From Bacillota bacterium (GTDB lineage Bacteria; Bacillota; DTU025), in NCBI GenBank assembly GCA_050951805.1, contig JBMNJT010000002.1, forward strand, positions 672,001 through 736,000: 64,000 nucleotides of DNA. The letters are read 5' to 3'. Shown piece after piece: positions 22,321 through 43,644 of this stretch. The notes beneath the pieces were generated by a model, which saw only the letters and a program-made list of their open reading frames with translations, was not told where the DNA came from and did no database searches. A program made the position numbers and the translations under genes. Every line of letters starts with the position of its first letter. The first letter of the stretch is position 1.

Positions 22321-22834
22321 CATTCGGGCTTCTTCTCAGACTAGCCGGGCAAAACTCCAATGCCCATGAATGGGGCGGCCTCCAAGTCGGCCTCTGAGTT
22401 TGCGGACGCATGCAGCCTGCAACCTCCTAGCTCCCTGCTTCTTGCGGAATGCTGCTGACCCCTTGTGCTTGTTTATGCTGCGTAAGTCCCGTTCGCCAAT
22501 CAAAAAAGTCGTGACACATGACTATTTGGTTGCCTGGAAGACGCCACCTGCAGATGAGCAACGTTTGTTGAAGGCCGACGCGGTTTGTTGCTTCCTTGAA
22601 CGGGTGAACATAGCGATCAAATGTGTTTTCAATCTTCGCCGAGTAGCGCGCCCGACCGGGGCTGCCCTCCATTATGTGTAATGTATGACAGACAAGATGT
22701 GAACTGATGGGGAAACCCCTGGGCGGGTTGAGGTTGGGAATAAGAGAAAACCCTGCATTGTGCCCCGGACTTTCACTGCCTATGAGTCGAAGGGAAGGAT
22801 GAGTCCTTTGTCGAAATCGTCGTTGGTGGTAAAT

Positions 22835-24992: not shown

Positions 24993-26747
24993 TTGAAAGA
25001 TACTAGCACCAAGCGATCCTGTTGCATACTGGCTGCCGCAATGGCGGTCGTGTTTTTGGCATCTTCTTTTACGATGGCTGCGCAATCCAAGTCTCTTGGG
25101 GTGGTCACCGCTATAGAAGTTATTGGCAATAGCAGGATTGACTCTGATATTATTACACAGGCCATAAACATTAAGGTGGGTGATGAGCTCACTGAAAGCG
25201 CCATAAGGGAAAGCTTCACCGCTATCGATGCTCTCGGCTGGTTTGCGGATCTCGGCGCCAACACCGTTCCGTACCTTGGAGGCGTGAAGCTCATCATTGT
25301 AGTGCAAGAATTTCCGGTTTTGAGCAAGATTCTAGTTAGCGGAAACGCACTAATACCTACTGAGGAGCTTCTCGGAATAATGGGGTCGAAGGTTGGCTCT
25401 CAGCTCAATGCCAATCAGCTCAGGAGTGACCTGGAGGCTTTGGGCAGCCACTACCATGACAAAGGCTACTGGGTGAGCATTGAACCATCACTTTCTGAAT
25501 CGGGTGAACTCATACTTCATCTGGTGGAATGGACTGTGTCGGAAGTCAAGTTTGCGGGGAATCAGAAAACTAAGCCGAAAGTTATCCAAAGGTGCATTGA
25601 GACAAAGCCGGGTGACTACATCAATGTCAATAAGATAAACGAGGACCGCAGGCGAATCTACATGCTTGGCGCGTTCGAGAATGTAGAGGCGAAAGTAGAG
25701 CCTGTGCCGGGGAAGTATGAATACGTGGTAACGTACGTCCTAACTGAACGGAAGACGGGCATTGCCAATCTGGCCCTGACATACAGTTCTCAGGACAAGC
25801 TTATGGGTTATATGGAGCTGGGAGATGAGAACTTCCTCGGCAATGCGCAGACGGTCAACATCAAAGCGGAGTTTGGCCGCACGAAAACCAATTATGAACT
25901 TGGCTTCTATGAACCTTGGGTCGGAGCATCCGGCAAGACTTCCATAGGCTTCAACGTCTTCAGCAAGACTTTGTCGAAGAAGTATACGCCATCTGATGAA
26001 AACGAGACTTCTTCCTCAGGGCAAGTCTTAAAGCTCGAGGAGGACCCGACGGCCTCTATCGATTATTCGCAGAAGCGGACGGGTGGAGACGTGACGATCG
26101 GCCGCACGCTTTCGCTCAACACTAAGGCGTTCGTCAAGCTCAAGATGGAAAACGCTGTTAATGACCCTGAACAGAAGCATCCTGATGTGGATTTCCCGGG
26201 CGGCGGTGCTACGCGTTCGCTTACGTTGTCGGCGGTCAATGATACCAGAGATGACCTTTGGAATCCTGCCACAGGTCACAAGTTGTCCAGTTCGCTGGAG
26301 TATGCAGGCGGAATTCTTGGCGGCGACAACAACTTTGCCAAACTTCGGGTTGATGCTTGCCAGTACTATCAGGTCCGTGATGGGCATATTCTGGCAGGTA
26401 GGGTTAGCGCCGGATATGGATTGGACGAGCTGCCTGATGATGAGCGTTTCAGGCTCGGGGGAGCGGAGACTGTCAGGGGCTACAAGTACGGCGACATCGA
26501 GGGTGATCGCATGGCCCTGGCAAACGCGGAATACCGTTTCAACATTACCAAAGGTCTGCAGGGTGTGCTGTTTTGCGATGCGGGGCAGGCGTGGAACGCG
26601 GATGGCTCTTTAGACGTTGGAAGTACTAAGGTCGGTTATGGAGCTGGCGTGAGAATCATGGTTCCGGTGCTGGGCATGATCCGTGTCGATTATGGCATCG
26701 GTGAAAAGGGAGGACAGGCCTACTTCAGCTTTGGGCAGACTTTCTAG
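24993..26747 (+). CDS. bamA: Omp85/BamA outer-membrane assembly factor
   Basis: Signal peptide, ~3 POTRA repeats (GN.RI / GN.LI / GN.KT), TVRGY loop-6 motif, C-terminal FSFGQTF. Confidence 0.93.
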   Translation: MKDTSTKRSCCILAAAMAVVFLASSFTMAAQSKSLGVVTAIEVIGNSRIDSDIITQAINIKVGDELTESAIRESFTAIDALGWFADLGANTVPYLGGVKLIIVVQEFPVLSKILVSGNALIPTEELLGIMGSKVGSQLNANQLRSDLEALGSHYHDKGYWVSIEPSLSESGELILHLVEWTVSEVKFAGNQKTKPKVIQRCIETKPGDYINVNKINEDRRRIYMLGAFENVEAKVEPVPGKYEYVVTYVLTERKTGIANLALTYSSQDKLMGYMELGDENFLGNAQTVNIKAEFGRTKTNYELGFYEPWVGASGKTSIGFNVFSKTLSKKYTPSDENETSSSGQVLKLEEDPTASIDYSQKRTGGDVTIGRTLSLNTKAFVKLKMENAVNDPEQKHPDVDFPGGGATRSLTLSAVNDTRDDLWNPATGHKLSSSLEYAGGILGGDNNFAKLRVDACQYYQVRDGHILAGRVSAGYGLDELPDDERFRLGGAETVRGYKYGDIEGDRMALANAEYRFNITKGLQGVLFCDAGQAWNADGSLDVGSTKVGYGAGVRIMVPVLGMIRVDYGIGEKGGQAYFSFGQTF

Positions 26748-26854
26748 TCTTAAGCTGGCTCATGTAGTATAATTGACGGGGCGCCGCGTCGTCGGCGCTC
26801 CTCGTTATACTGTTCTGATTGCGATTTTTGAGTTGATTGGAAAGGATGACATTA

Positions 26855-27313
26855 ATGTTCAAAAACGTGCCGAAGACTCTCCTGATTGTTTTGGTGTGTG
26901 CCATTTTGGTCGGTGCTGTTGCTGTTGTGGCTAATCTTTCGGCTGTATCGCGGGCCGCTGGCGAGGCCGCTGTCATAGGAAAAGTTGATGGGGTCAGGCT
27001 TGGACAGGAATTCCCTGCGATGCAGAAAGCTGTTGACAACATTCTCAAGCAGAAGGCTGCCTTGGAAAAGGAACTGAACACCAAGGCTGAGGGGCAGGAT
27101 CAGGAGACCCAGAGGACTTTGCTTGACCAGTATAATCTGAAGTACAATGAGTATGCAAAGCAGCAGCTGGAACCTGCGGAGAATGCTCTGAAGAGCGCCA
27201 TAGCGGCAGTCGCCAAGGAGAAGGGCGTTACCGTCGTTCTGGACTCGAGCGTTGTCCACCTTGGTGGAATAGACATGACAGACGCCGTCCTCAAAAAAGG
27301 CGGGGCGAAATAA
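26855..27313 (+). CDS. ompH: OmpH/Skp periplasmic chaperone
   Basis: IGKVD...AI.AVAKEKGVTVVLD...GGIDMTDAV; follows bamA. Confidence 0.88.
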   Translation: MFKNVPKTLLIVLVCAILVGAVAVVANLSAVSRAAGEAAVIGKVDGVRLGQEFPAMQKAVDNILKQKAALEKELNTKAEGQDQETQRTLLDQYNLKYNEYAKQQLEPAENALKSAIAAVAKEKGVTVVLDSSVVHLGGIDMTDAVLKKGGAK

Positions 27314-27341
27314 TAGCAAGTAGCGGCAGTGCATCACACTT

Positions 27342-27370
27342 GGGGAGGCGACATTCGTCTCCCCCTTCTT
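27342..27370 (+). terminator. Terminator after ompH
   Basis: GGGGAGGCGA-CAT-TCGTCTCCCC followed by a pyrimidine tract. Confidence 0.6.
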
Positions 27371-27510
27371 GTCTTGAGGCGCTTTGGCACGCTCTATGCC
27401 CACCGCGGGGGCAGGGCTGTTATGTTGAAATGCATGGGGTTGTGCCAAAGATGCGATTGCGATGCTCAGTTGCGCTCAAGAGGCAGCTGTAGACTGCGAG
27501 GTCACGACTG

Positions 27511-30500
27511 ATGAGGATTCTTGACAGGTATGTAGTCCACGAGTTCATGGGTCCCTTTATTCTATCTATATTGGCGTTCATCGTGATAATGCTGAGTGGG
27601 CAACTCTTCTGGCTTGTAGACCTGATAGTCCAGAAGAAAGTGCCTGTGCTCATTGTTGCTAGGATGCTCCTTTACAGCCTTCCGGGGATCGTGGTTCAGG
27701 TTTTGCCTGTTGCGGTTCTGTTTGGCGTCTTGATCGGCCTTGGCAGGCTGGCTCGCGATTCTGAACTTCAGATTATGCGGGTTTCCGGGATTCCTTTCGC
27801 CAGGATTGCTTTGCCTCTCATCGTTTTGGGGGCGGTTATGAGCGCAGTCGGATTTTGGCTCAATGAGAGCGTGGCGCCGTGGGCAACTCATCAGTCCGAG
27901 ATTATCGTCAGGGAGATGATATTTCAGGAGGCTTTTCCCGATGTCGAAGAGGATGTTTTCTTCAAGGCGCCGGGCAATCGCTATTTCTACGTGGGCAAGG
28001 CTGACCAAAAACGTGGCACGTTTGAACGTGTGATGATATACGAGACGGCTAGGGGCGAGTTTCCGCGCCTTGTCTCTGCCAGGAGTGGTCGGGCTGAGTC
28101 AGGCAAGTGGGTGCTTGAGGATGGCAGTATCCATGAGCTCGATGAGGAAGGGCATGTGCGAATGGCGATTTCCTTTGAGACTCTGGAGATTTCCCTGGAG
28201 CAGTCGCTCGATAGCTTCGCATCGAGCCAGAAGACCCCAGAGGAAATGAGCATGAAGGAACTCAAGTCCAATATCGACCTTTTTGAGAGGAGCGGGATCC
28301 GTGTAGATGCGCTCCGCGTCGATTACTATCTCAAGGTTGCCCATCATGTGGCATCTTTGGTCTTTGCCGTTCTCGGTGCCCCGCTTGTCGTGAAGTCTCC
28401 CCGACGTGGCGGCGGTTACTTCGGGGTCGTGGCGGCAGCCGTTCTCTCCTTTGCCTATTACATCGTGCAGGCTCTGGCGCGATCTGTGGCCATGAGGGGC
28501 GGCCTGTCCCCGCTTTTAGCTGCTTGGTTGCCCAATATTGTCTTTGGAGTGCCAGGTCTTTTCATGTTGTTCGCAGTTGACCGTCCCCGAATGAATTTGG
28601 CTGCAAGAAGGAGGAATTCGGGAGGGGGCGATGGGTCTGCTGGGATCAAGTTTTCCAGAGGCGGCGTTCATATGTGGCTTGGGGTATCGATCTTGACGAC
28701 TCTGTACATTTTCGCAATCTGCTCCCCTCCTGCGGTCGCAAGCAATATTCCTGTCAAGGTAGACGCCGAAAAACTTGTGTACGACGGCGCAATAGGTCTT
28801 TGGGTGATGTCGGGGAATGTGAAGATCGAGTACAAGGATCTCGTGATATCCGGAGATTACGCTGAGTTCAATATGGATCGGAAAGTTGTGGCAGTAAACG
28901 GGTCGGTCAGGGTCGTTTCAGGGCAGGATGCGCTCGCGGGCGAAAGCGCCATTTTCAACGTTTCCACGGGCGAGGTTGTGGTTGATGAGGCCTGGGCTAA
29001 GCTGACAGGCGAAGGCGTTGAAGGATTCCTGTACATGTCTGGAAGCCAGTTGCAAAAGGAAGATGATTATCTTTGGCTTTCCCATGGCTCTGTTACTACT
29101 TGCGATCTTGACAAGCCCCACTACCGTTTGGAAGTAGGGGAGATGGAGGTCTATGTTGATGACAGGATAGTCCTGAAGTCTGTCTCCTATTACGAGGGGG
29201 ATCTGAAGTTGCTGACCTTGCGGCGACTCGTGGTGCCCCTAAAGGAAGACGAGCGGTTCGAGCTTCCCAGGGTGGGATACGGTGCGTATGAGGGCTGGTA
29301 CTTGAAGACCAAGTACAACTACAAGCTGAGTGAAGACGCTTACGGATCCTTATATGCCGACTACTTCCAGCTGTTGGGCCCCGCAGTCGGCATAACTCAA
29401 AACTTGCAGTTAGGTAAGGGCGGCGTGCTCACGGCCTACCTTTACGGGTTGTGGAACACAGGTTCCGGTACCTTCGACACTACGCTCGAACTTTCTCAGG
29501 ACCTGAAGCTGCCATTTGATATAGGTGCAAAGGCCGGTTACAAACAGAGAAACTACGTCAATATTCTCGGGGATGAAATTGCTGAGCGTGCCTACAATCT
29601 CAGTCTGAATAGGCGAGTCGAGGACTCAAGCACCTCCTTTGCCGGCACGTTCAGGGAGACTGACGGAGCCACTTACGCTTCAGTCGCTAATGCAACCTTC
29701 AGGCACTCTTCAACTTTGCTCCATGACATAAAGCTTTCTTCAAATGTAGACTATAAGAAGCAGGTAAAGGACACAGACGTCACCCAGGACGTAGTAAGCT
29801 ACAAGGTGCAAGCTGACCGCGCCTACGGGGACTTCAAGGTGATGGGGCTTGCGCAGGCCCAGGTATACGTGGAAGATCCGAGTGACGTAGAGACTAAGCC
29901 GCCTCCGTGGAAGGCTCTGAAGAAACTTCCGGAGTTTACGGCTACAGCCAGCGGACTTGCTGTCGGCGAGAGTTCTCTCATCCTTGATGTGAAGGGCGTG
30001 TTTGGAAATTACGTTGAGGATGCAATTCGGAGCGGGACACGATCAGAAGTGAGTGCGGCCAAGGGGGAGCTGGATCTGACGCTCAGGACCAAGTCTCGTC
30101 AGCTTTTTCCATGGCTATCAATGGACGGATATGCACGTGGAGTCTTCGATGTCTATCAGGGCTATGGAGACCGGATGGCCGCTGTATGTTCCGTCGGGGC
30201 GTATGTAAAGCCGTTTTCCGGCACTACCCTGAGGCTCACCTATACCGAAACGGGTATCTATGGTTCGTCGCCCTTCAGGTTTGACGAAATCAATGCCGGG
30301 TCAAAGCTGGGCGGGAACCTTACGACATCGCTAGGACCGGCGAAGCTCACTTTATCGACGGGATATGATGTTGTCTCCGAAAGGTATGATCCTTTGAACG
30401 CCGCTTTGCGGCTGGATATCGCTAAAGGGCTGTCGATCGATTTTTCGGGAAGATACGATCTCGAGAGCGGGAATCCGACGTCACTTGTGGGCAAAGTCGT

Positions 30501-30822
30501 GGCCCAGCCGTCGCCTGATATCCAGGTAAAGGCCGGCGGCAGTTATGATTTTGTTCGAGGACAGATCACCAGGGTTGAGTCATCGGGAGATGTCAGGTTC
30601 AGACCCGAATGGCGTCTGCAGTGGACTGGTGTGTATGATTTCTTCAAGGGCGGTCTCGTGCGAGGAGACATAGGGATCACCCGCGATCTGCACTGCAGGG
30701 AAGTGGCTCTCACATACCAGCACACGTCGAGACGGGTGTGGCTCGAGTTCAGGCTGAAGGCATTCCCAGGCACACCTCTCGGGTTTGGCCTGGGCGAAGA
30801 AGGAATACTCTTTCAACAGTGA
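27511..30822 (+). CDS. LptF/LptG permease fused in frame to an LptD-like jellyroll plus beta-barrel
   Basis: N-terminal ~355 aa are YjgP/YjgQ (MRILDRYV, DSELQIMRVSGI, LAAWLPN). C-terminal part has LptD motifs VTTCD..PHY, LPRVGY..EGW and RDLHC. Confidence 0.88.
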   Translation: MRILDRYVVHEFMGPFILSILAFIVIMLSGQLFWLVDLIVQKKVPVLIVARMLLYSLPGIVVQVLPVAVLFGVLIGLGRLARDSELQIMRVSGIPFARIALPLIVLGAVMSAVGFWLNESVAPWATHQSEIIVREMIFQEAFPDVEEDVFFKAPGNRYFYVGKADQKRGTFERVMIYETARGEFPRLVSARSGRAESGKWVLEDGSIHELDEEGHVRMAISFETLEISLEQSLDSFASSQKTPEEMSMKELKSNIDLFERSGIRVDALRVDYYLKVAHHVASLVFAVLGAPLVVKSPRRGGGYFGVVAAAVLSFAYYIVQALARSVAMRGGLSPLLAAWLPNIVFGVPGLFMLFAVDRPRMNLAARRRNSGGGDGSAGIKFSRGGVHMWLGVSILTTLYIFAICSPPAVASNIPVKVDAEKLVYDGAIGLWVMSGNVKIEYKDLVISGDYAEFNMDRKVVAVNGSVRVVSGQDALAGESAIFNVSTGEVVVDEAWAKLTGEGVEGFLYMSGSQLQKEDDYLWLSHGSVTTCDLDKPHYRLEVGEMEVYVDDRIVLKSVSYYEGDLKLLTLRRLVVPLKEDERFELPRVGYGAYEGWYLKTKYNYKLSEDAYGSLYADYFQLLGPAVGITQNLQLGKGGVLTAYLYGLWNTGSGTFDTTLELSQDLKLPFDIGAKAGYKQRNYVNILGDEIAERAYNLSLNRRVEDSSTSFAGTFRETDGATYASVANATFRHSSTLLHDIKLSSNVDYKKQVKDTDVTQDVVSYKVQADRAYGDFKVMGLAQAQVYVEDPSDVETKPPPWKALKKLPEFTATASGLAVGESSLILDVKGVFGNYVEDAIRSGTRSEVSAAKGELDLTLRTKSRQLFPWLSMDGYARGVFDVYQGYGDRMAAVCSVGAYVKPFSGTTLRLTYTETGIYGSSPFRFDEINAGSKLGGNLTTSLGPAKLTLSTGYDVVSERYDPLNAALRLDIAKGLSIDFSGRYDLESGNPTSLVGKVVAQPSPDIQVKAGGSYDFVRGQITRVESSGDVRFRPEWRLQWTGVYDFFKGGLVRGDIGITRDLHCREVALTYQHTSRRVWLEFRLKAFPGTPLGFGLGEEGILFQQ

Positions 30823-30890
30823 GGTTGCGACATGAACACTCCGGTGTAACCTTTGGCCGTGCTGAGGGCTTGTCAGGAGGCGTGATGCTG

Positions 30891-31562
30891 ATGGACCCGA
30901 GGATTGTCAGGATAGTCAGTGTTGCCATATTGCTGGTTCTTGGTTGCCTGTACGTTTACGCTTTCGTGCTCAACAAGCCGGCCGATGAAGATCGAAGTTT
31001 TGACCCGGATCCGGACCGCGCCTCCAGTGATCTCACGTTTGGCGGCGTCAGTATCGAGGGTCGGGAAAACGGCGAGAGGGTGTGGAAGATTTCCGCGGCC
31101 AATGTGGATCTGCGAGATGGCGACGGCCATGTGGAGATGAGCGAGATTGGGCACGGCGAGATATACAGGGATGGCGAACCCTATGTCTCATTCAGAGCAT
31201 GCAAAGGCGTTTTTGATACAAAGACGGGCCAGCTGTCGCTCTCAGGAGGTGTCGATGTTTTCTCAGGAGGGCGGAAGCTGTTGAGAACGGATGAAGTGGC
31301 ATGGAAGCCCGATGACTCTAGGATTGTCATTCCAGGGCAGGCAGAGATAATTACCGAACAGGGGGTGGTCTCTGCTGCTTCTCTTCGGGTGGACGTGGCC
31401 TCCGACAAGATTTATGCCAGCGGTGACTTGACGATTCGCGAGGGGTTCGGTGGTCGAGACGTTGTCGTAAAAAGCGGAGAGATTTGTTTCGACCCTGCGG
31501 AGAACTCCTTCGAAGCATGGGGCGGGACTGAGATTGAGTTTGAGATTGGCGACGACGATTGA
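30891..31562 (+). CDS. lptC: LptC-like protein
   Basis: Single N-terminal TM plus beta-jellyroll (G...WKISA, LRTDEVAW); adjacent to lptA. Confidence 0.75.
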   Translation: MDPRIVRIVSVAILLVLGCLYVYAFVLNKPADEDRSFDPDPDRASSDLTFGGVSIEGRENGERVWKISAANVDLRDGDGHVEMSEIGHGEIYRDGEPYVSFRACKGVFDTKTGQLSLSGGVDVFSGGRKLLRTDEVAWKPDDSRIVIPGQAEIITEQGVVSAASLRVDVASDKIYASGDLTIREGFGGRDVVVKSGEICFDPAENSFEAWGGTEIEFEIGDDD

Positions 31563-31575
31563 GGGGGAGAGCGGA

Positions 31576-32256
31576 ATGAAGGGGCAGGCGCGAAGAAGAG
31601 CGATGTCTCTTGTGGTTTTGGCGGTGCTTCTGGTTTCAGCGGCCATTGTTGCGGAGGCCGCCGCGAAAAAGGTGAACCTGCAAGTTCATGGCAAGGTACG
31701 TTATGAGGGTTCCAAGGGCAGAACTATTGTAGAGGGCGGCCTGACCATACGGTATGACGACACTGTGATTACTGCGACGAACGCGGTTATAGACAATGCG
31801 GCTGAGACTGCCAAACTGACTGGCGGCGTTCTTTTAACGCAGAAGGATGTTGTACTCAATGCTGATGAGATGGATGTGGATCTCAAGAATGATACTGCTG
31901 TAGTGAAGGGAAATGTGAGGCTGGAAAAACGCGAGGAACAGGCGGAAAAGGACGAGTCCGGAAAGGCGAAGGTCTCTGTTGTGAAGATGACATGCAACAT
32001 TCTGGAGATCTCAACCAAGACTCAGGATTTTATCGCCCAGGGATCGGTCTTGATGACCAAGGATAAACAGAAAGCCCAGGCGGAAAAGGCGAATTACGAT
32101 AACGCCGGCAAAACTCTGATTTTGCAGGGTTCTGTTGCCATCGAGGACGAGGGGAACAAGACCATAAAATGTGACAGGGCGATCCTCTATACTGATAAGG
32201 AACTGGTGGAAGCGGAAGGCAAGCCTGTAGAGATCACCTTTGAGATCGAGGAGTAA
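31576..32256 (+). CDS. lptA: LptA/OstA-like periplasmic protein
   Basis: Signal peptide plus repeated jellyroll strands (LNADEM, KGNVRL, AEKANY, LILQGSV). Confidence 0.8.
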   Translation: MKGQARRRAMSLVVLAVLLVSAAIVAEAAAKKVNLQVHGKVRYEGSKGRTIVEGGLTIRYDDTVITATNAVIDNAAETAKLTGGVLLTQKDVVLNADEMDVDLKNDTAVVKGNVRLEKREEQAEKDESGKAKVSVVKMTCNILEISTKTQDFIAQGSVLMTKDKQKAQAEKANYDNAGKTLILQGSVAIEDEGNKTIKCDRAILYTDKELVEAEGKPVEITFEIEE

Positions 32257-32393
32257 CGCATGTGGCTGGTCGTTGTTCCTGACCAAGATCGATGCTGGGT
32301 TTTTTAGGGGACCAAAAAAAGAATGGAAGGCGTGACGCCACTCGTCCCTTTCCATGTGAAGGTGTAGTCAGTAGTCGAGTGAAGATCGGGTAT

Positions 32394-32430
32394 GAAGGAG
32401 GGCCGCAAAGCGGCCCTCCTTCCCGCGTTT
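32394..32430 (+). terminator. Strong hairpin, probable terminator
   Basis: 13-bp perfect stem GAAGGAGGGCCGC-AAA-GCGGCCCTCCTTC; T tract is displaced by a few bases. Confidence 0.5.
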
Positions 32431-32845
32431 TCGCCCGGCATATTTGTTGATCAAAGAAGTCCTGGATTGCCCGTACCCAAAGATGTTTACGTGTGAACAT
32501 AGCGAAATCGAACCGGGATTGGCTTGTCAGCTGGATAACCTGGGAGGTTGGTGGGACTGCTTTTAGGGAGTGAGGTCTAAAAGTAGAGCCGTGTACGAGG
32601 TCGGTACGCACGGTTCTGTGAGAGGGTGATGCTCCCGATTATCCCTATCGAGCTCGCCAAAAGCTGCTGTAGAATCCACAGGTTACTGATGAACGCCCCT
32701 GAAGCGGGATTCACTGGAGCTTTCAGTGCCCGTAGTTCAGCTGGCTATGTCATTTGCGGCCACATGGAAGACATTACATGGCAAAAGAGAGGTGCAAAGT
32801 GGGCACACATGCTATAATGTCGAGTGAATGGGGGGGGGTAGCTGC

Positions 32846-35257
32846 ATGTACGCCCTTGTGCGCGGTGGGTTCATACTGGACGTTGCCGCGGTGCTTCTAG
32901 TCACAATCATACTAGGATCGTTTGTAGCGGCAGGAATTGCGTCCGCTGCCGATGATTTCTTTGTTCATACAGTATCAGATGTAGTAGGCGAATACGGCGA
33001 ATACGATCTGATTGTCCACGTGAGGACTGAGTCCAGACGCGAGGCTTTGCGCGCGCTCAGGGCGACACTGCGCGCGAAGCTCCCGGGGGCCCGAGTCAAA
33101 GAGAGCGCCACCGTCTTGTCGGTGTCGAACTTCCTTGTGTCGTTGGCGAAAAAGGACGAGGAATCAGTGACAGCTTTGGTGCAGGGGGTGTCCGGCATTC
33201 CGGGGTTTGCCGGGTATACGTTCTTGCTCGAGCCTAAGGTGACCGTGAGTGGTGTCGGTTCGAAGACAGCGCCGATTGTTCAGGATAAGTTGACGCGGCT
33301 GGATGGAGTGGAGTTTGCTTTGCGCGACGGCGGAGATATTCATCTCATATGTGAGTCGCCGGAGAGTGTGAAATCTGTGGCGCAGGCGGCCGAGGCAATC
33401 CTCGGGCGCTACCAGGTGGTCGATATTAGGTTTGCGCCGAGCGCACTGGCTTCGGAAGGTGCTTTCCGGGGCCGACTTGTGCAACGCGTAGCTGCCGGGT
33501 TGGCAGGCGGGGATGTGAAGGGCCAGGTTGTGCGCGACGTGACGCCGCGGGGACAGGCCGACGAGGCCCAGGTGTTGGCTGGGGCTATGGTGAAGATGAA
33601 AGCATTCCTGGAGGCCTGGGCGCCGCAAGCTTCTATACGACTGGACGAGGGAAAGGTCAACCCTGTGCACACTGGGGCGGATACGGGGTTTTCAGGCCTG
33701 GATACAGGAGATTCTGTTGTCTTGTCTGTGGAGGATAAGCCCGTTGGATCGTTGCCGGCGCCTGAAGATATGGTGGTGTCTGTGACTGATGTCGACGGAG
33801 ATAAGGCTCGCGGAATAATAGTCGATGGGGCAAAAGAGCCCAAAGACCAGTCGTCGCAGGTTCTTTCAGCATATCTGCTGGAAGACGGTGTTGTTTCAGG
33901 CCGTGTGGGAAGCGCTACTACAAGTCGGCCCCAGGAGGACCTGTCCCGTTCACTATCGGAGGCGGAAGAGGCACTGGCACAGTACGATGCAGGGATTGCG
34001 GATGCTATGAGGGCCGCGAAGATTGGAGAGGAAGCTTTGGAATCATACGAGCGGGCCATAGACTCTCTCATTTATCTCCAAAGGGCCTTGGAGAGCATTG
34101 GCGTGGATGGCGAAGCGGACATAATGCCCATCGACGATGAGGCGGTGAGCGCGCTGCTCCATCTGACTGAAGAGGCGTTGGAGGCGATAGAAGCTCTGCG
34201 CTCCACGGCTGACGTTGTTGTAATGTTCTCAGGAAGTTATGACTCGCTCCTTGCCGATCTCGAGCTGTGGCAGGCCAGGCTAAAGTCGTTCGCTCAGAAA
34301 CTGGAGACGATACAGTCGGCTGCAACCGGCGCGGGCCAGGTGGCGGAGATGCTCAGAGATATGTCGTCTGCGGCGTCAGGAATCCTATCTACTTTGCATC
34401 AGCTGGATCCTGCCTCTTTGCGCGAGAACATCGAAGCTGCGAAAGTAAAGCTTGCTCAGATGTCGGAGGTGGATGTGGACGGCATTGCAGAGCAGGTAAG
34501 GGAGGTGAAATCCGCGCTTCCCAAGTTCGATGGGGATGAGATCGTCAGTTCTATCGGGGCCATCAACAAGCTTGTCGGGGATCAACAGGGCTCTTCCGAC
34601 AAGGTTCAACTGCTGATTGAGTCGGGGCTGACTCCTGATAAGCTAGCAACAGCCGTTGAGGAGGTGGCCGGGAAGGATGTGCTGGCAGTTTACACTATAC
34701 CTGCGGGGATAGTTCAACCAGGGGTGCGCAGTGAGGTTCAGAACCTGCTGAGGTCAGTAAAGAGCACCATATCCGGGTTGGCTGCCTGCGGAATCGTTGC
34801 TGTCTCGCTCATGGTGGACCATTCTACTGTGATTGCGGGCGCTATCGGTCTCGAAAGGAGAAGGCAGGGCGTGCTGCGTCCGGGTTTTGAGGAGTATCTT
34901 TACGGGGCTTTGGCGGGAGCGATCAGCCTTTATGCTATTGGCACAATTACCGGGTCAACGCTGGGGTCTGCAGGGGGCCCGCTATTTGCCGCGATCGGAG
35001 GCCTCTTGGGACTTGTGGGCGCCGGAGTTTCGCTCAAAATGTCGCCGGTCGACCTCGATGAGGTCGAGGCCTCTATTGCGTTTGGTATGACGGGAACGCA
35101 GATCATGAGGGAGATAATTATACCCTCCGGAAAGCCCGGGATTCTGTCCTTCATCAACCGGCCTCACGTGGTCTTCGACGGCATTGATCATGTGTCTGCC
35201 GATAGAAAAGATCGTCGGGAAGGAGGTTCAACTAGGTGCTCGCAATGCGCGATGTGA
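32846..35257 (+). CDS. Uncharacterised membrane protein: N-terminal TM, ~600-aa extracytoplasmic region with long helical segment, C-terminal TMs and EAA loop (ABC permease-like)
   Basis: C-terminal EVEASIAFGMTGTQIMREIIIPSGKPG fits the EAA-x3-G-x9-I-x-P coupling motif; overlaps the ATPase gene. Confidence 0.75.
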   Translation: MYALVRGGFILDVAAVLLVTIILGSFVAAGIASAADDFFVHTVSDVVGEYGEYDLIVHVRTESRREALRALRATLRAKLPGARVKESATVLSVSNFLVSLAKKDEESVTALVQGVSGIPGFAGYTFLLEPKVTVSGVGSKTAPIVQDKLTRLDGVEFALRDGGDIHLICESPESVKSVAQAAEAILGRYQVVDIRFAPSALASEGAFRGRLVQRVAAGLAGGDVKGQVVRDVTPRGQADEAQVLAGAMVKMKAFLEAWAPQASIRLDEGKVNPVHTGADTGFSGLDTGDSVVLSVEDKPVGSLPAPEDMVVSVTDVDGDKARGIIVDGAKEPKDQSSQVLSAYLLEDGVVSGRVGSATTSRPQEDLSRSLSEAEEALAQYDAGIADAMRAAKIGEEALESYERAIDSLIYLQRALESIGVDGEADIMPIDDEAVSALLHLTEEALEAIEALRSTADVVVMFSGSYDSLLADLELWQARLKSFAQKLETIQSAATGAGQVAEMLRDMSSAASGILSTLHQLDPASLRENIEAAKVKLAQMSEVDVDGIAEQVREVKSALPKFDGDEIVSSIGAINKLVGDQQGSSDKVQLLIESGLTPDKLATAVEEVAGKDVLAVYTIPAGIVQPGVRSEVQNLLRSVKSTISGLAACGIVAVSLMVDHSTVIAGAIGLERRRQGVLRPGFEEYLYGALAGAISLYAIGTITGSTLGSAGGPLFAAIGGLLGLVGAGVSLKMSPVDLDEVEASIAFGMTGTQIMREIIIPSGKPGILSFINRPHVVFDGIDHVSADRKDRREGGSTRCSQCAM

Positions 35258-36000
35258 AAAAGGCGTACGGATCGCGCCAGGCGCTTTCAGGGTTCGATCT
35301 CGACGTACACGAGGGCGAGACTGTAGTTATCATGGGGCCGTCGGGATGCGGCAAGTCTACAGCCCTACGGTGCATTATCAGGCTGACAGAGCCCGACTCC
35401 GGGTCAATACTGTGGCGGGGCCGGTCGGTTTTGGGTATGTCTTCTGATGAGCTGAGATCGTACAGACGCAGGACAGGCTTTGTGTTCCAGCGTTCGAATC
35501 TCGTGTCGCGCCTGAGCGTCCTCGAAAATGCCATGCTGCCCGGTGTAATGGCAGGGGTCTCCATTGATGAGGCTAAACGGCTTGCATACGGCGCTTTGGA
35601 GAAGGTGGGGATTGAGCGTCTGGCGGCAGCATATCCACCGAATCTGTCAGGCGGTGAGATGCAAAGGGCAGCGATAGCTCGCGCCATTGCCCAAGAGCCT
35701 GAACTCCTGCTTTGGGATGAGCCTACGGCCTCGCTCGACCCTATCCTCGTGGTGGACGTGCTCAAGCTGATAGAGTCACTTGCCCGTTCGCTCGGATCCA
35801 CCATGATAATAGTCACTCACGAGGTCCAGTTCGCCCTGCGCGTTGCGGACAAAGTTGTGCTCGTGTCCGATGGAGCGGTCGTGGACGAAGGTAAACCTGA
35901 GGATGTGTTGCTCACGCCGGGCTCGGATTTGGCCCGTCAGTATTCGGAGTCTTTGTCATATTTCGCAGGCCATCGGGAGGAGAAGGAGGTGGGCCTGTAG
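35236..36000 (+). CDS. ABC transporter ATP-binding protein (GlnQ/MetN-like)
   Basis: GPSGCGKS, LSGGEMQR, WDEPTASLD, VTH. Confidence 0.95.
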   Translation: MLAMRDVKKAYGSRQALSGFDLDVHEGETVVIMGPSGCGKSTALRCIIRLTEPDSGSILWRGRSVLGMSSDELRSYRRRTGFVFQRSNLVSRLSVLENAMLPGVMAGVSIDEAKRLAYGALEKVGIERLAAAYPPNLSGGEMQRAAIARAIAQEPELLLWDEPTASLDPILVVDVLKLIESLARSLGSTMIIVTHEVQFALRVADKVVLVSDGAVVDEGKPEDVLLTPGSDLARQYSESLSYFAGHREEKEVGL

Positions 36001-36064
36001 AAACCCGATATGCTCAGTAGACACTTGACGAGCAGCATTTCTGCTGCAAGTGGGGTGGTTAAAT

Positions 36065-37330
36065 TTGGACATAGTGCTGGTCTCCAGCTCTCCAGAGGAA
36101 GTTCATGGGCTTGCGAGGCCCGTCGCTGAAAAGGCTCTGTCAATGCTGCCGGCGGCTGATATATGGATGTTTGTCTCCCCGGGAGGCTATGCCAGTGGAC
36201 GAGAGGCTAAAGTCGCTTCTACCTACCCAGGAGTGAGGAGGGCGGTGTCTGTCCGCGAGTTCCTTGCCTTTCTGGCATTTGGCAAGAGACCATCGGGTTT
36301 TGCCAGTTCGGGATCGGGCATTGTGATTCATTTGGGCGGGAATCTTTGGTGCTCGGTTCTCCTAAGCCGACGATTGCGTTACCCACTTGTTGTATATACA
36401 GACAGGACGGTCTTGGGCGCCAAGACTGTTTCTGCATTTCTTGTAGAGGACGAGAGGATTCAGGCCTCGCTGATTGCGAAAGGTGTCCCCGCCGAGCGCG
36501 TCAGACTTATCGGAAACCTCATGGTGGACGGCGTTCGCGCCGGAATGGACCGTGACCAGGCAAGGGCGTATCTGGGGGTTGCGAACGGCGAGAGGTTAGT
36601 GCTGCTGTTCCCTGGAACTAGGGTTCAGGAGGCTGCGGTAATGGCCCCGTTTCTATTTCGCGCAGTGGAGCTCCTTGCCAGGGTGGAGCGGGACTTGAAA
36701 TTCGTCCTCTGTCTTTCTCCTTTCATCGGCACTGCTTCTTTGGATTCAATCTTCTCCTATTCCAAGCACAGGGGCAAGATAGATGGCTCAAGCGCTATCC
36801 TCCAGAAGAGCGCAGGGCCCCTCGAGGCTGTTACCGCTGGGGGAGTGCATGTACGAATAGAGACTATGAAGCGGTACGAGGCCATGATGGCGGCTGATAT
36901 CGCGATATGCACTCCTGGTCCTATCTGTTCGGAGCTGGCATTCTTGGGTATTCCTTATGTGGCTGCGGTGCCGCTCAATGTGCCTACTGCTGTGCCTTTT
37001 CCCGGTGTTTCCCCATTTCTCTGCTCACTTCCGTTCGTTGGGGAGCTCTTCCGAAAGCGCGCTGTGGAACAGGTGGAGGAATCCGGTAGGTTCCTGTCTG
37101 TCCCTAATGCCAGGGCAGAAAAGCTGGTAGCGCCGGAGGTTGTTGGACACTTGCGCGCGGAGGACGTGGTAATCCCGTGTGTCGAGCTTTTGGGTGACAC
37201 TGCCCGTCGCGACAGAATATCTCGGGAGTTGCGCGAAGCCATGGGAGTGGCGGGAGCTGCGGAGATGGTCGTCAGGACAGCTATCGCGGCGAACAGGGGG
37301 ACGCTTCAGGCTATTGAGAAGGGGCAATAA
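36065..37330 (+). CDS. LpxB-related GT-B glycosyltransferase (lipid-A-disaccharide synthase-like)
   Basis: LIGNLMVD, LLFPGTRVQE, ELAFLGIPYV, SVPNARAEKLVAPEV resemble LpxB (GSR..E, SLPN..A...PE), but divergent. Confidence 0.7.
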   Translation: MDIVLVSSSPEEVHGLARPVAEKALSMLPAADIWMFVSPGGYASGREAKVASTYPGVRRAVSVREFLAFLAFGKRPSGFASSGSGIVIHLGGNLWCSVLLSRRLRYPLVVYTDRTVLGAKTVSAFLVEDERIQASLIAKGVPAERVRLIGNLMVDGVRAGMDRDQARAYLGVANGERLVLLFPGTRVQEAAVMAPFLFRAVELLARVERDLKFVLCLSPFIGTASLDSIFSYSKHRGKIDGSSAILQKSAGPLEAVTAGGVHVRIETMKRYEAMMAADIAICTPGPICSELAFLGIPYVAAVPLNVPTAVPFPGVSPFLCSLPFVGELFRKRAVEQVEESGRFLSVPNARAEKLVAPEVVGHLRAEDVVIPCVELLGDTARRDRISRELREAMGVAGAAEMVVRTAIAANRGTLQAIEKGQ

Positions 37331-39690: not shown

Positions 39691-39978
39691 CCTGTGGGCG
39701 GCTGGTGGAGTATTCAAAAATCTTCTGATTCATGAAGGAGTTGACCAGTGTTTGGAGAATATGAAATTGCAGGTATACTCTTGGTCATACCTATGTTCTG
39801 ATCGGCCCTAACAACGGCAGGAGAAAGCTGTGGTTGTTTGGCCGTATTGTACGCAAAAGGGCTCGTCCCCGTTTTGGTTGCAGGGCGAGGAAACATGAGC
39901 ACTCGTCCTGGTCACCTCTATCGGCATTGAGTTCTTAGCGTCTAGTTGATCAGGATCAATTTGAGGGGGGAAGGACTA

Positions 39979-42900
39979 ATGAAGAAACTCCTGGCCGTTC
40001 TCGTTGCCACCGCGATGATTGGCATCATTGCCATCCCGGTGTTGGCGAGTCCCTTCTCCGATTTGCCGGAGGAGTCGCACTGGGCACTTGACGCACTGAC
40101 GATGCTAGCAGCGTTGGGGATCGTCGAGGGCTACCCTGATGGATCATTCAAGGGAACACAGCCTGCGACAAGGTACGAAGTGGCCTTGATAGTGGCTAGG
40201 GCACTGGAATACCTCGACAAAGACATCAGGCAGATGTCCGAGAAAATGTTTGACCTTGAAGGCAGATTGGATGCTGGGGTTGTTCAGCAGGAAGCGAAAC
40301 CTGTTGTGGAACCAGAACCTGAAGCGGAACCTGTCTTGCAGCCTTCCGCGTCGCCCGATGCAACCATCCTAGAGCAGGTGATCTATGAGAAGATCGCTGC
40401 TATGTCTGATGAGCAGTGGGTGAATTTTGAGGAGAAGCTTTATGAGCTAGTTGCGCGGGTTGATGACCTCAGCGAGGATAACAAGGCTGAACATGCTAAG
40501 CTTTGGGAAGCTGTTGAGGCTCTTGAGGCTCTTAAAGAGGCGCGCACTACCACAGTGGTTGTGAGCGAGGGTGCCGATATCGGATTGGCTTTGGATAGTC
40601 AGAAAGCCGAAATTATGAAGGCGCTTAGCGATGCTGTCAATGCGGAGAAAGACGAACGCCAGAAGGCGATTGATGTCCTAGGCGCGTCGATGGATGCCGC
40701 CCTATCCGAGCAGAAGGGCGAGATCATGATGGCGTTGTATGATTCGCTCGAAGCTGCTAAGGATGAAGGAAGTCGTGAGATGGCAGAGCTGGAGGCCAAA
40801 CTCCAACTAGCTCTTGATGAGCAGAATGCCGCTTTGACTATGGCCTTCTATGATTCCCTTAAAGCTGCGGCTGAAGGCGATGAACAGGCGCTTCAGGGTC
40901 TGAGCGGTGCTTGGCAGCTGGCTCTGGATGAATATAACGCCGAGCTTACTATGGCCTTCTATGATTCTTTGAAGGCTTCCAAAGAAGAAACTGATCGCGC
41001 CATAGAGGATGTCCTGGCAAAGCTGGACGTGGCGCTCGCGGAGCAAAACGCCGAGCTCACCATGGCTTTCTATGATTCCATAGAGGCCGCCAAAGATGAG
41101 CAAGACCGCAAAATGGCTGCTATGGAGGCCGAGTTGCAGTTGGCTCTCGACGAGCAGAACGCCGAGCTCATGATGGCCTTCTACGATTCGATCCGCGCTG
41201 CACAGAATGACAACGCGGCTGATCTCGAGGCCTTGAAGGCCGAGTTGCAGTTGGCTCTCGACGAGCAGAACGCCGAGCTCATGATGGCTTTCTATGATTC
41301 CATAGAGGCCGCCAAAGATGAGCAAGACCGCAAAATGGCTGCTATGGAGGCCGAGTGGCAGTTGGCTCTCGACGAGCGGAACGCCGAGCTCATGATGGCC
41401 TTCTATGATTCGATCCGCGCTGCACAGAATGACAACGCGGCTGATCTCGAGGCCTTGAAGGCCGAGTGGCAGTTGGCTCTCGACGAGCAGAACGCCGAGC
41501 TCATGATGGCCTTCTATGATTCCATCCAAGCTCAACGAGAAGACATAATGGCCATGTTTGAGGATACGGAGTCCAGATTTGAGCTCGCGCTCGATGAACT
41601 CAGGGCCGAGCTGATGATGGCTTTCTATGATTCGGTTGAAGCTGAAGCCGATGAGAGAGCAAGAGCCATTGATGAGTTGGCAGAGGATTTCGATCTCAAG
41701 CTCATGGAGCTCCATGCCGAAGTCGCCATGGAGACCTATGATTCGGTCTTTGCGGCTCGAGAAGAGTGTCTGGCAGCGGTCGACGCCGTTGTGGCAACCA
41801 TCGATGCTCTGCAGGCTGAGTTCAGCCGGGAACTGGCTGCTCTTAACCTTCGCGTAGACGCGGTGGAGCGGGAATTGGCTGTAGTCCGCGGCATGGCTGA
41901 CCAGAACGCGAAGGATATTGCCGAAACATATCACAGGATAAAGACTGAAGACATAGCTCCGCTCGAGGAGCGCGTCGCCAAGCTTGAAGGCAAGGCGGCA
42001 GAGCATGATGAGAAGATCTCAGGGATCTGGGATGACCTGAACAGGTTCAGGTTTACTGGAACCAACACGGCGCAGTTCACAGATATTGATCTGCGCGGCG
42101 AAGGGTTCTATCAGGATCCCTGGAACCCGGCTGGCAAGACGTATGCTCCTACATCAGTTCTCCAGAACAAGCTCGAACTCGAGCTGAACATAGTTCCGGA
42201 AAAGGGCGTAAGCATTGATGTAGGGCTCAGCGCTGTAACTGACATTTTTGGCAAAGATGACAGTGAGGTTGGCCTCTTCGATGGGGGTCTCAATCTCGAT
42301 GTGACCACGCCGAGCGGCAATGCCAAGGTGCTCGCAGGCGATTTGGCCAGACCGAGGAACTTCACTAAGTATCAGATCAGCCGGAAGGTATTTGGGGATG
42401 CTGGTGTAGAGGGTCTCAGCCTCGATCTGACCACCGGGCCTTTTGTCACTACAGGAATGATTGCGAAGATCGAACCTGCTGAGTATGAGATGCAGTATGT
42501 GCTGGGCGGCGGAGCCAGCTACACATTGGGAAGCCTCAAGGTGGATGGCAGGCTGCTCAAGATAACTGATGATCCGGAGTCGGGGCTCGAAGCCGTTACG
42601 CCCAACGAGAGTGTTGCTGGCACAGGGTTTGCGCTGAAGCTCGGCGAAGGCTGGAAGCTTGACGGAGAGATCTCTTCTTGGAACAAGGATAACGAGGCCA
42701 CGGGCCTCTTGGCTCGCAACCTGCATGCAGCAGGCAAGGCTGGGGTTTTGAACCTCACAGGCTACTTCGAACAGGTTGACGATGGCTATGCTCCGAAGTA
42801 TTTGGGCACGGCCAGCAACGATCCTGACAGAGTGGTCGCCGACACGCGCAAAGCAGGCTTCGAAGTTAAGACTGACTCGCTCAACGGTCTCACCATCACC

Positions 42901-43644
42901 GGCAGTATCGATCGCGCAGGTGATGCGTGGTACGCCAGCAAGGATGTAGTGACTTACGCAACCGATGCCGAGTATGAAATGGAGCTTGGACCTATCGACG
43001 TCACCCTCAGGGGCGGGGTCGCTAAGGACCATAATGGCTATCCCACGGTGAATAACCCCAGGTTCGCCACTACGACTGATCTTGGGTTCGATGTGGCATT
43101 CAGCCCTCTGAAGGCAGGGTTCACCTGGGAACATGAAGTGGAAGCCAATGCAACTTCGTACATTGGCTATGCGGACTTGAACATGCCGCTTGCAGCTGAT
43201 ACGTTGGCCCTCAAGGGTAACTGGAAGCAGAGCTTCGGCAGCAATGAGTACTACACCTATGGCTTGGGCATTGATATGAAGATGCCGATCACCGAGAATG
43301 TCTCGACAATGGGCGGAACCATGTCTTATGGGAAGAGCAGTGGCATGGCCAGGGATAAGGATAACTACGCGAGATTCCTGGTGGGCGCAGACCTCGAATG
43401 GAAACTGCGGCCGGCGACTACCTTTACAGGGAAAGCCTCCTACGAGCTGCGCGACTACGAAAAGGATACGCAGCCTTCAGGCGAGTATCTACAGTACGGG
43501 TTGGCGCTCTCGCATGAGATCTACAAGTCCACTACGCTCAAGATGAACTACGACTTCAAGGACGTCTACTATTCGCCAAGGAACAACGAATTGACGAATT
43601 ACTCCGCGAGGATCATAGGCCTATCCTTGAAGACGGTATTCTAA
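39979..43644 (+). CDS. ompM: OmpM-like outer-membrane tether: signal peptide, SLH domain, very long coiled-coil stalk, C-terminal beta-barrel (1221 aa)
   Basis: PFSDLP..HWA...GIVEGYPDGSFKG..PATRYE SLH motif; amphipathic beta strands from ~aa 689; terminal Phe. Confidence 0.85.
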   Translation: MKKLLAVLVATAMIGIIAIPVLASPFSDLPEESHWALDALTMLAALGIVEGYPDGSFKGTQPATRYEVALIVARALEYLDKDIRQMSEKMFDLEGRLDAGVVQQEAKPVVEPEPEAEPVLQPSASPDATILEQVIYEKIAAMSDEQWVNFEEKLYELVARVDDLSEDNKAEHAKLWEAVEALEALKEARTTTVVVSEGADIGLALDSQKAEIMKALSDAVNAEKDERQKAIDVLGASMDAALSEQKGEIMMALYDSLEAAKDEGSREMAELEAKLQLALDEQNAALTMAFYDSLKAAAEGDEQALQGLSGAWQLALDEYNAELTMAFYDSLKASKEETDRAIEDVLAKLDVALAEQNAELTMAFYDSIEAAKDEQDRKMAAMEAELQLALDEQNAELMMAFYDSIRAAQNDNAADLEALKAELQLALDEQNAELMMAFYDSIEAAKDEQDRKMAAMEAEWQLALDERNAELMMAFYDSIRAAQNDNAADLEALKAEWQLALDEQNAELMMAFYDSIQAQREDIMAMFEDTESRFELALDELRAELMMAFYDSVEAEADERARAIDELAEDFDLKLMELHAEVAMETYDSVFAAREECLAAVDAVVATIDALQAEFSRELAALNLRVDAVERELAVVRGMADQNAKDIAETYHRIKTEDIAPLEERVAKLEGKAAEHDEKISGIWDDLNRFRFTGTNTAQFTDIDLRGEGFYQDPWNPAGKTYAPTSVLQNKLELELNIVPEKGVSIDVGLSAVTDIFGKDDSEVGLFDGGLNLDVTTPSGNAKVLAGDLARPRNFTKYQISRKVFGDAGVEGLSLDLTTGPFVTTGMIAKIEPAEYEMQYVLGGGASYTLGSLKVDGRLLKITDDPESGLEAVTPNESVAGTGFALKLGEGWKLDGEISSWNKDNEATGLLARNLHAAGKAGVLNLTGYFEQVDDGYAPKYLGTASNDPDRVVADTRKAGFEVKTDSLNGLTITGSIDRAGDAWYASKDVVTYATDAEYEMELGPIDVTLRGGVAKDHNGYPTVNNPRFATTTDLGFDVAFSPLKAGFTWEHEVEANATSYIGYADLNMPLAADTLALKGNWKQSFGSNEYYTYGLGIDMKMPITENVSTMGGTMSYGKSSGMARDKDNYARFLVGADLEWKLRPATTFTGKASYELRDYEKDTQPSGEYLQYGLALSHEIYKSTTLKMNYDFKDVYYSPRNNELTNYSARIIGLSLKTVF
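40585..41805 (+). repeat. Eleven tandem 111-bp (37-aa) coding repeats including a near-identical 222-bp duplication
   Basis: TTGGCTCTCGACGAG recurs at 41140, 41251, 41362 and 41473. Consensus core LALDEQNAELMMAFYDS. Confidence 0.95.

Follow-up and report, generated by a model that had tools for sequence, protein, structure and literature searches.

The gene described here raises the question of whether a protein that ties the outer membrane to the cell wall can also set the distance between them. The gene lies on the forward strand of a 64,000-nt stretch of DNA from a Bacillota bacterium (assembly GCA_050951805.1, contig JBMNJT010000002.1), which we refer to as the window and number from its first letter. 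The longest open reading frame (ORF) over the locus spans 39946..43644 (+), and the likely start is the ATG at 39979, just downstream of the ribosome-binding site GAGGGGGGAAGG, giving a product of 1221 aa. The initial annotation had described an SLH domain followed by a long helical stalk and a large barrel, and all three parts were found by Pfam and AlphaFold2 (Table 1). By architecture the protein is of the SlpA/OmpM kind, with an exceptionally long and partly non-heptad stalk. We consider it likely that it is a SlpA/OmpM-class tether whose stalk serves as an extended rod-shaped spacer between outer membrane and peptidoglycan. Because the length of a second, unrelated rod protein moves in step with that of the stalk, the latter probably keeps the outer membrane unusually far from the cell wall.

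Both ends of the protein match known members of this class. The SLH domain scored 41.4 bits against a cut-off of 20.8 (Pfam PF00395), and in a comparison of a 14-orthologue profile with solved structures the SLH region was best matched by Veillonella parvula OmpM1 (8bys, E 1.5e-27) and Deinococcus radiodurans SlpA (7zgx, E 1e-23). At the other end, an AlphaFold2 model of aa 650-1221 built from 25 aligned sequences (mean pLDDT 86.8) predicted a neck helix followed by an even number of strands, 28, which form a barrel of ~533 aa (689-1221); the C-terminal Phe is invariant in 14/14 orthologues. Foldseek searches with the barrel model placed MtrB and SlpA first (E about 1e-10), and in VIA-align three SlpA chains led the results (Z 17.2, 16.9 and 16.4 over 474-504 aligned residues), followed by FimD at 15.3. 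The top match in a protein-atlas feature search was an SLH+SlpA_C cluster (score 0.95). The barrel belongs to a rare family: 18 representatives among 1.84 billion reached E <= 0.001. For the whole protein, out of 5.8 billion, 34 clusters were matched at E <= 1e-20. The 14 orthologues share a motif at the stalk base, PDATILEQVIYEKI, in which L131, E132 and K138 are invariant and D127, I135 and I139 are conserved at a level of at least 90%.

Much of the stalk is an array of 37-residue repeats. The YDS/SDA anchors recur 37 residues apart ten times in succession, and a repeat hidden Markov model (HMM) placed 11 abutting units at aa 200-606, free of indels, with an i-Evalue of 1e-18 to 1e-22 each. 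The initial annotation had the same unit count and length, while its boundaries, aa 203-609, give the same array three residues out of register. On the DNA, Tandem Repeats Finder (TRF) reported periods of 111 and 222 nt, the latter at 95%. Repeats 5 and 7 are 90% identical at the DNA level and repeats 6 and 8 are 97% identical, with every other pair at 46-77%, which indicates that the array is old and that one two-repeat block was duplicated recently. The 407 residues of the array include no Pro and 7 scattered Gly, neither being conserved at any repeat position, and the polar stretches of the 37-mer are rich in the helix formers E, A, K, R and Q. The unit count ranges from 0 to 11 across 41 family proteins. 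These 37-mers are restricted to the family of the window's protein; the stalks of other families are similar in length, with a heptad-like periodicity of 3.51-3.55. A profile match of the repeats to apolipoprotein A-IV (E 7.7e-5) was read as common 11-mer amphipathic periodicity, not homology.

In a low-confidence AlphaFold2 model of aa 24-705 (13 aligned sequences, pLDDT 58.7), helices occupy residues 144-191, 200-393 and 397-687, and the individual repeats show no turn. The hydrophobic Fourier spectrum of the array peaked at 3.70 residues, with a power of 176.8 at 37/10, 3.3 at 37/9 and 23.2 at 37/11, and the peak power of the whole stalk was 105.4 versus 79.9 for the 99th percentile of shuffles. 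Core positions 2, 6, 9/10, 13, 17, 20/21, 24, 28, 32 and 35 are spaced 4-4-3, 4-4-3, 4-4-3-4, or 11+11+15; the periodicity check thus agrees with the initial annotation, which had read a period of 3.7 residues as 11+11+15. Right-handed non-heptad (hendecad/pentadecad) coiled coils, with more than 3.63 residues per turn and built from 11- and 15-residue units, occur in Staphylothermus tetrabrachion and in adhesin stalks. The 11+11+15 core and 3.70 peak found here would fit this pattern, although the exact 37-residue repeat forces the latter value and handedness is not readable from sequence alone. No published 37-residue (11+11+15) super-repeat in an OmpM/SlpA stalk was found in the literature on hendecads, SLH and outer membranes. 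A second hydrophobic face is formed by repeat positions 4, 14, 15 and 18 (window 40576-41796), and an interaction between trimers or with the other rod is possible there.

At ~0.15 nm per residue, we computed a length of about 60 nm for the array, about 84 nm for the helical stalk (aa 128-687, ~560 residues) and about 100 nm for the rod of the second protein. At this rise the earlier arithmetic holds, with about 61 nm for 407 residues and about 84-92 nm for 560-611 residues. The stalk is presumed to be trimeric, right-handedly supercoiled and fully extended.

That the stalk acts as a spacer is suggested by the second rod protein. The genome that holds the window (G000; other G numbers are the related genomes compared) encodes three SLH proteins in all, one of which, at G000:C2:1204088-1206475, is a 795-aa protein with an SLH domain (32.6 bits, above cut-off), a rod of about 680 residues, a C-terminal hydrophobic helix and the tail GSAGAIVAVLGVIAAVAAIAIGSGGK, and has no barrel. 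This layout of SLH, rod and transmembrane (TM) helix, also present in 16 relatives, is the architecture of Thermotoga Omp-alpha, and the protein is presumably anchored in the outer membrane. Partner rods have a periodicity of 3.56-3.64, versus 3.70 in the array, and carry no 37-mers. Two spans were compared, both counted in residues from the HWA motif of the SLH domain: up to the barrel in the tether (M), and up to the TM helix in the second protein (alpha) (Table 2). Across the 15 measured genomes, the two spans correlated with r = 0.967 and a slope of 1.08, and independent contrasts gave r = 0.85 with 12/14 of the same sign; with the estimated genome G016 included (n = 16), the values were r = 0.972 and a slope of about 1.07, with 14/15 contrasts of the same sign. 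Between the sister genomes G015 and G016, M increases by 324 residues and alpha by 211, in the same direction. As a control, the TonB-like protein encoded beside the second tether (258-329 aa) showed no trend with stalk length (r = -0.32, n = 9), which argues that the co-variation is not general to envelope genes or assemblies. The linker of this TonB-like protein was rejected as a third ruler on the same numbers, as its length does not scale with the stalk.

Table 2. Lengths of the tether stalk span (M) and of the second protein's rod span (alpha), in residues.
Genome	M	alpha
G030	184	182
G021	289	383
G023	408	461
G019	470	494
G015	481	669
G020	534	565
G013	538	589
G014	543	579
G009	581	620
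G003	582	624
G001	613	659
G000	660	729
G007	661	736
G004	731	803
G012	758	878
G016 (estimated; gene cut at both ends)	about 805	880

Left out of this comparison were G002, G005, G008, G010 and G011, whose genes are fragmented or masked; G006 (no alpha-like match), G017 (no OmpM-like match), G018 (broken genes) and G038 (alpha-like only); G026, which has three alpha-like paralogues and no OmpM-like match with this query; and the remaining phylum-level genomes, which gave no alpha-like match at E <= 1e-10.

These data suggest how the protein may work. After export, the 28-stranded C-terminal barrel would insert into the outer membrane, and the single N-terminal SLH domain would bind a peptidoglycan-linked polymer, presumably as one of three in a homotrimer of the kind formed by OmpM1 and SlpA. 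The ~560-residue stalk, composed of a short helix, eleven 37-residue 11+11+15 units and a neck of ~80 residues, would serve as a spacer in the form of an extended, near-straight coiled coil roughly 80 nm long, its length tuned by repeat gain and loss. The second protein, with its SLH domain, ~680-residue rod and C-terminal TM helix, would span the same gap, its length evolving alongside that of the stalk. The real width of the periplasm in this lineage would follow from these lengths.

Several observations weigh against this reading. The query has no match at E <= 1 to Pfam SlpA_C (PF21620), the SlpA barrel family of Deinococcus-Thermus, and that family was reached weakly by only 2/25 relatives (best E 1.6e-4). 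The monomer model of the stalk is of low confidence (pTM 0.20, with the pLDDT given above) and has one break, at aa 394-396. A trimer prediction with three copies of aa 311-532 (six repeats) scored 0.00 with a fold pLDDT below 50 and speaks neither for nor against an oligomer. Because an exact 37-residue repeat lets only 37/10 dominate the helical band, the 3.70 value is largely dictated by the repeat length and does not alone prove that the stalk is one uninterrupted right-handed coiled coil; considerable power also lies in the 18.5- and 9.25-residue harmonics (124.7 and 238.4). The conserved hydrophobic residues L4 and M15, and likewise M14 and Y18, point away from the core stripe, on the other side of the helix, where a simple single-stripe coiled coil leaves them unexplained. 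The C-terminal TM helix of the second protein may sit in the inner membrane. The co-variation could use only 16/41 genomes, which as kin are not independent, and the tree for the contrasts was made from the barrel of the same tether protein. Most of these genomes are fragmented assemblies, in which repeat collapse could shorten both genes together, and G015 is an outlier (481 v 669). Finally, G026, from another family, has three Omp-alpha-like paralogues (loci L117-L119) with rods of 182, 219 and 331 residues, which misfits a single-ruler picture.

Some of these points would also be expected if the 37-mers of the same protein family folded as a compact alpha-solenoid or folded-back bundle, so that the stalk fell far below 60-90 nm and the periplasm was ordinary. 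Each unit would then fold as a pair of short helices centred on its hydrophobic clusters (positions 32-6 and 13-21), and two-helix solenoid repeats are typically this long (37 aa). Each unit does have two hydrophobic clusters with polar stretches between them, matching the 18.5-residue power, and hydrophobic residues on two helix faces; D19-S20 and N10 could cap helices, and the low confidence of the monomer model counts on the same side. The V. parvula OmpM1 stalk, moreover, crystallised in a compact form according to the available excerpt of its description (PMC10628300). Against such a fold, AlphaFold2 gave unbroken helices of 194 and 291 residues, the repeat has no conserved Pro or Gly, and its polar stretches are made of helix formers. 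When alpha was regressed on stalk residues (n = 16), each 37-mer residue was accompanied by 1.03 +/- 0.08 partner-rod residues and each other residue by 1.09 +/- 0.08, while a solenoid would give about 0.2 per 37-mer residue; these equal coefficients argue against compact repeats, provided that both proteins span the same gap. The alpha/M ratio likewise stays at 1.05-1.16 in 13/16 genomes whatever the share of 37-mers in the stalk (0% to 66%), the exceptions being G030 (0.99), G021 (1.33) and G015 (1.39). We therefore regard a compact stalk as very unlikely. The initial annotation had proposed that the stalk is a molecular ruler, and this idea is supported by the length co-variation of the second SLH-rod-TM protein in 16 genomes, in which 37-mer residues count like any other stalk residues.

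Rods could also be extended and yet set no distance, either as a tilted or parallel periplasmic skeleton or because the stalk and the Omp-alpha-like rod are bundled, their lengths matching through lengthwise binding. A slope of about 1 fits lengthwise pairing as well as it fits a common gap, and the second hydrophobic face (L4, M14, M15, Y18) suggests lateral contacts beyond the trimer core. The TonB-like protein of the partner's operon, moreover, is constant in length while the rods vary four-fold. However, both proteins have an SLH domain and a membrane anchor at opposite ends, which is the geometry of known spanning tethers as outlined in the available portions of two reports (PMC9388160, PMC10160955), and the difference in periodicity, together with the absence of 37-mers from the partner, is awkward for an in-register hetero-bundle. 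In our judgement, rods of this non-spacing kind are unlikely.

The length of the stalk and its count of eleven units might instead reflect neutral repeat drift or an assembly artefact, with the co-variation arising from assembly quality or shared ancestry. A public-library protein that is 98.7% identical (P0003) has exactly 74 aa fewer in repeats 5-8, leaving nine units rather than eleven. Two further small indels of this protein, of 18 nt and 9 nt, also appear in one RNA-library contig, and a strain variant has 6 aa fewer in the Pro/Glu-rich linker. Short-read contigs break inside the array at 41091-41493 and show no joints, and the count of nine may be real or an assembly collapse. The spread of unit counts across the family and the fragmented state of most relatives are also in keeping with drift or artefact. 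However, the window lies on a 1.56 Mb contig of an 8-contig genome, and the outer repeats cannot collapse in assembly because their DNA identity is only about 50%. The co-variation holds between families with unrelated stalk sequences and periodicities, nearly all contrasts share the same sign, the non-repeat control protein is trendless, and the reading frame is intact in every full-length orthologue. This explanation therefore appears extremely unlikely to us, and we retain the extended spacer as the preferred reading.

The tether is found in most genomes of its host's class. The host's class is represented by only 21 genomes in the collection, 19 of which matched a barrel query, and some match to the whole protein was found in 36/41 related genomes. 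The 14 full-length orthologues have barrels of 527-614 aa and stalks of 240 to 709 aa. The initial annotation stated that OmpM proteins are usually far shorter, which is true of Veillonella OmpM1 and Deinococcus SlpA as far as the accessible parts of PMC10628300 and PMC9388160 describe them, whereas in the host's class a length of 1050-1330 aa is the rule among orthologues. In a scan of genome contigs, a single-protein query gave no relatives and an alignment query gave mostly SLH-only matches. The third SLH protein of the genome (G000:C2:1525717-1526961, locus L027:1360-2604) has 414 aa and three SLH-like repeats, with no barrel or rod, and a 420-aa ORF resembling it was found in relatives.

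Table 1. Features of the tether gene and of its surroundings in the window.
Feature	Position	Strand	Evidence
Whole gene, 1221 aa + stop, giant OmpM/SlpA-type tether	39979..43644	+	ORF and ribosome-binding site GAGGGGGGAAGG
Signal peptide aa 1-23 (MKKLLAVLVATAMIGIIAIPVLA, next residue S)	39979..40047	+	read from sequence; putative cleavage site
Single SLH domain aa 25-69	40051..40185	+	Pfam PF00395 E 1.4e-10
Pro/Glu-rich linker aa ~100-127, no predicted secondary structure	40276..40359	+	sequence, AlphaFold2
Conserved motif PDATILEQVIYEKI aa 126-139, base of stalk	40354..40395	+	14-orthologue conservation
First stalk helix aa 144-191	40408..40551	+	AlphaFold2, low confidence
Eleven 37-aa repeats aa 200-606, consensus ELQLALDEQNAELMMAFYDSIEAAKDERDRAIEALEA	40576..41796	+	anchor motifs, repeat HMM, TRF
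Repeats 5-8, two-repeat (222-nt) block duplicated recently	41020..41463	+	DNA identity, TRF
Distal stalk and neck helix aa 607-687, periodicity about 3.6	41797..42039	+	Fourier, AlphaFold2
C-terminal outer-membrane beta-barrel aa 689-1221, 28 predicted strands, C-terminal Phe	42043..43641	+	AlphaFold2
698-aa ORF	22760-24856	+	
BamA	24993-26747	+	Pfam
Skp	26837-27313	+	Pfam
LptF/G	27511-30822	+	Pfam
LptC-like	30738-31562	+	Pfam
LptA-like	31534-32256	+	Pfam
809-aa ORF between LptA-like gene and LptB	32828-35257	+	no Pfam match
LptB	35236-36000	+	Pfam
LpxB-like	36050-37330	+	Pfam
DUF3084 coiled-coil protein, 441 aa	38365..39690	+	Pfam PF11283 E 4e-31
DDE transposase	3219-4502	+	
UPF0236-family transposase-like gene	46858-48285	+	

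Upstream of the tether gene, on the same strand, lies an outer-membrane biogenesis cluster (24993..37330, +) whose BamA, Skp, LptFG/C/A/B and LpxB-like genes fit a diderm Terrabacteria host of the SlpA/OmpM superfamily, and SpoIID, SpoIVB and MreB genes are found further upstream. This outer-membrane and sporulation gene context indicates that the host, an uncultured member of the Bacillota, is a sporulating diderm. Two PS_pyruv_trans genes are present in the genome, one of which, for a CsaB-type pyruvyl transferase, lies 2.5 kb past the window. The 809-, 698-, 483- and 340-aa neighbouring ORFs had no NCBIfam or Pfam match; the first two of these, the second of which lies just upstream of BamA inside the cluster, are candidates for divergent LptD- or TamB-type proteins. 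The 1103-aa LptF/G ORF has one full LptF_LptG match, within its first 353 residues, and looks fused or extended. Directly upstream of the tether gene, across a gap of 288 nt, the DUF3084 gene gave coiled-coil-type weak matches. A transposase-like gene lies near the tether gene and a DDE transposase near the window start. In anaerobic digesters and sludge, covered by 10 studies, the tether gene occurs in 20 sequencing runs, including 6 RNA libraries; the contigs of one RNA run cover only 39915-43587, and those of another continue upstream. A promoter and terminator scan gave counts at chance level.

The second tether lies in a cluster of its own (G000:C2:1199985-1206475, locus L121:1486-7976, +), which consists of five co-oriented genes in the order ExbB/TolQ-like, ExbD/TolR-like, TonB/TolA-like, a 674-aa secreted protein with an NPCBM_assoc domain, and the rod gene last. 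The TonB/TolA-like protein has 327 aa, an SxxxH transmembrane motif and a Pro-rich spacer. Genes upstream of the rod are kept in 11/12 of the relatives examined, G013 being the exception, and these relatives include members of three other families of the phylum. No Plug-domain match and no detectable TonB-dependent receptor were found in the genome, which has only two MotA_ExbB genes, and this hints at a Tol-Pal-like rather than a TonB-receptor role. Taken jointly, these observations allow a wider reading that we put forward tentatively and hold to be somewhat doubtful. An uncultured class of sporulating diderm Bacillota might use two co-evolving rulers to fix the gap between peptidoglycan and outer membrane, which would range from about 27 nm to more than 110 nm across relatives (about 80-100 nm here) in a toga-like envelope within the Firmicutes. 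With the rod at the end of an ExbB/ExbD/TonB-like cluster, the pair could be an energised, Tol-Pal-like tether of Terrabacteria.

SlpA/OmpM-class tethers are thought to be the ancestral way of holding the outer membrane, and their role in envelope geometry is known from few species. This lineage offers a natural length series in which a pair of independent rods varies four-fold in concert, in some cases with a joint change between sister genomes, making the spacer idea directly testable by cryo-electron tomography. If the preferred reading is true, the stalk would be the longest of its class among the published forms compared, as far as the excerpts of those reports go. It would also provide a regular 37-residue non-heptad coiled-coil unit of interest to structural biology, and give the Firmicutes a parallel to the Thermotoga toga, with a bearing on models of the diderm/monoderm envelope transition. 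If the stalk is compact, the finding reduces to an unusual repeat in an ordinary tether. No description of the protein, of the 37-mer stalk or of the co-variation was found in the literature searched, and the survey of stalk lengths across phyla in PMC9388160 may hold related long forms.

Among known systems, the SlpA proteins of D. radiodurans (PDB 7ZGX, 8AE1, 8AGD) and Thermus share an SLH domain, a long coiled-coil stalk and a very large single-chain barrel with the protein described here. SlpA is presented, in the excerpt available of PMC9388160, as a connector and spacer between outer membrane and peptidoglycan, with a 28-nm coiled coil versus a measured gap of 30 nm and barrels of 28 or 30 strands. 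It is also the best structural match to the tether's barrel (Z 16.4-17.2) and a close match to its SLH domain (E 1e-23). The stalk here, in contrast, is about three times longer, with ~560 helical residues versus a 28-nm segment, and is built largely from 37-residue non-heptad repeats, where SlpA has heptads with beta-layers. The 533-aa barrel also lacks the large insertions of D. radiodurans (residues 254-1167 there), Pfam SlpA_C does not match the query, and the host belongs to the sporulating Bacillota rather than the Deinococcota.

V. parvula OmpM1 (PDB 8BYS, 8BYM, 8BZ2), the best sequence match to the SLH domain (E 1.5e-27), is a trimeric porin-tether with an SLH domain, coiled coil and barrel, encoded in an outer-membrane gene cluster of a diderm Firmicute according to the consulted sections of PMC10628300 and PMC5007114; the former places its coiled coil at roughly residues 64-113. 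OmpM1 has about 430 aa and a 16-stranded barrel; the tether described here exceeds its stalk length about tenfold and is predicted to have 28 barrel strands. Polyaminated peptidoglycan is the ligand of OmpM1; the host of the tether carries a CsaB-type gene. The Omp-alpha protein of Thermotoga maritima is an SLH-anchored coiled-coil rod of 45-50 nm beneath the toga, where the lateral periplasm is about 70 nm, and the Thermotogae are reported to be without the fused SlpA/OmpM form, at least in the excerpted text of PMC10160955. This lineage, unlike Thermotoga, has both the fused form and an Omp-alpha-like protein, whose rods are longer than that of Omp-alpha, at about 680 aa here and as much as about 830 aa among relatives, and which resembles it in architecture. 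Length-swap experiments reportedly bear on the spacer role of another tether, Braun's lipoprotein (Lpp) of Escherichia coli. According to the abstract of PMC8824477, Lpp ties the outer membrane to peptidoglycan through a coiled coil, and the length of this tether is one of the factors that constrain periplasmic space. Lpp is an unrelated small lipoprotein that is covalently linked to peptidoglycan, and its role as a spacer comes from experiment, whereas the one proposed here is drawn from natural length co-variation.

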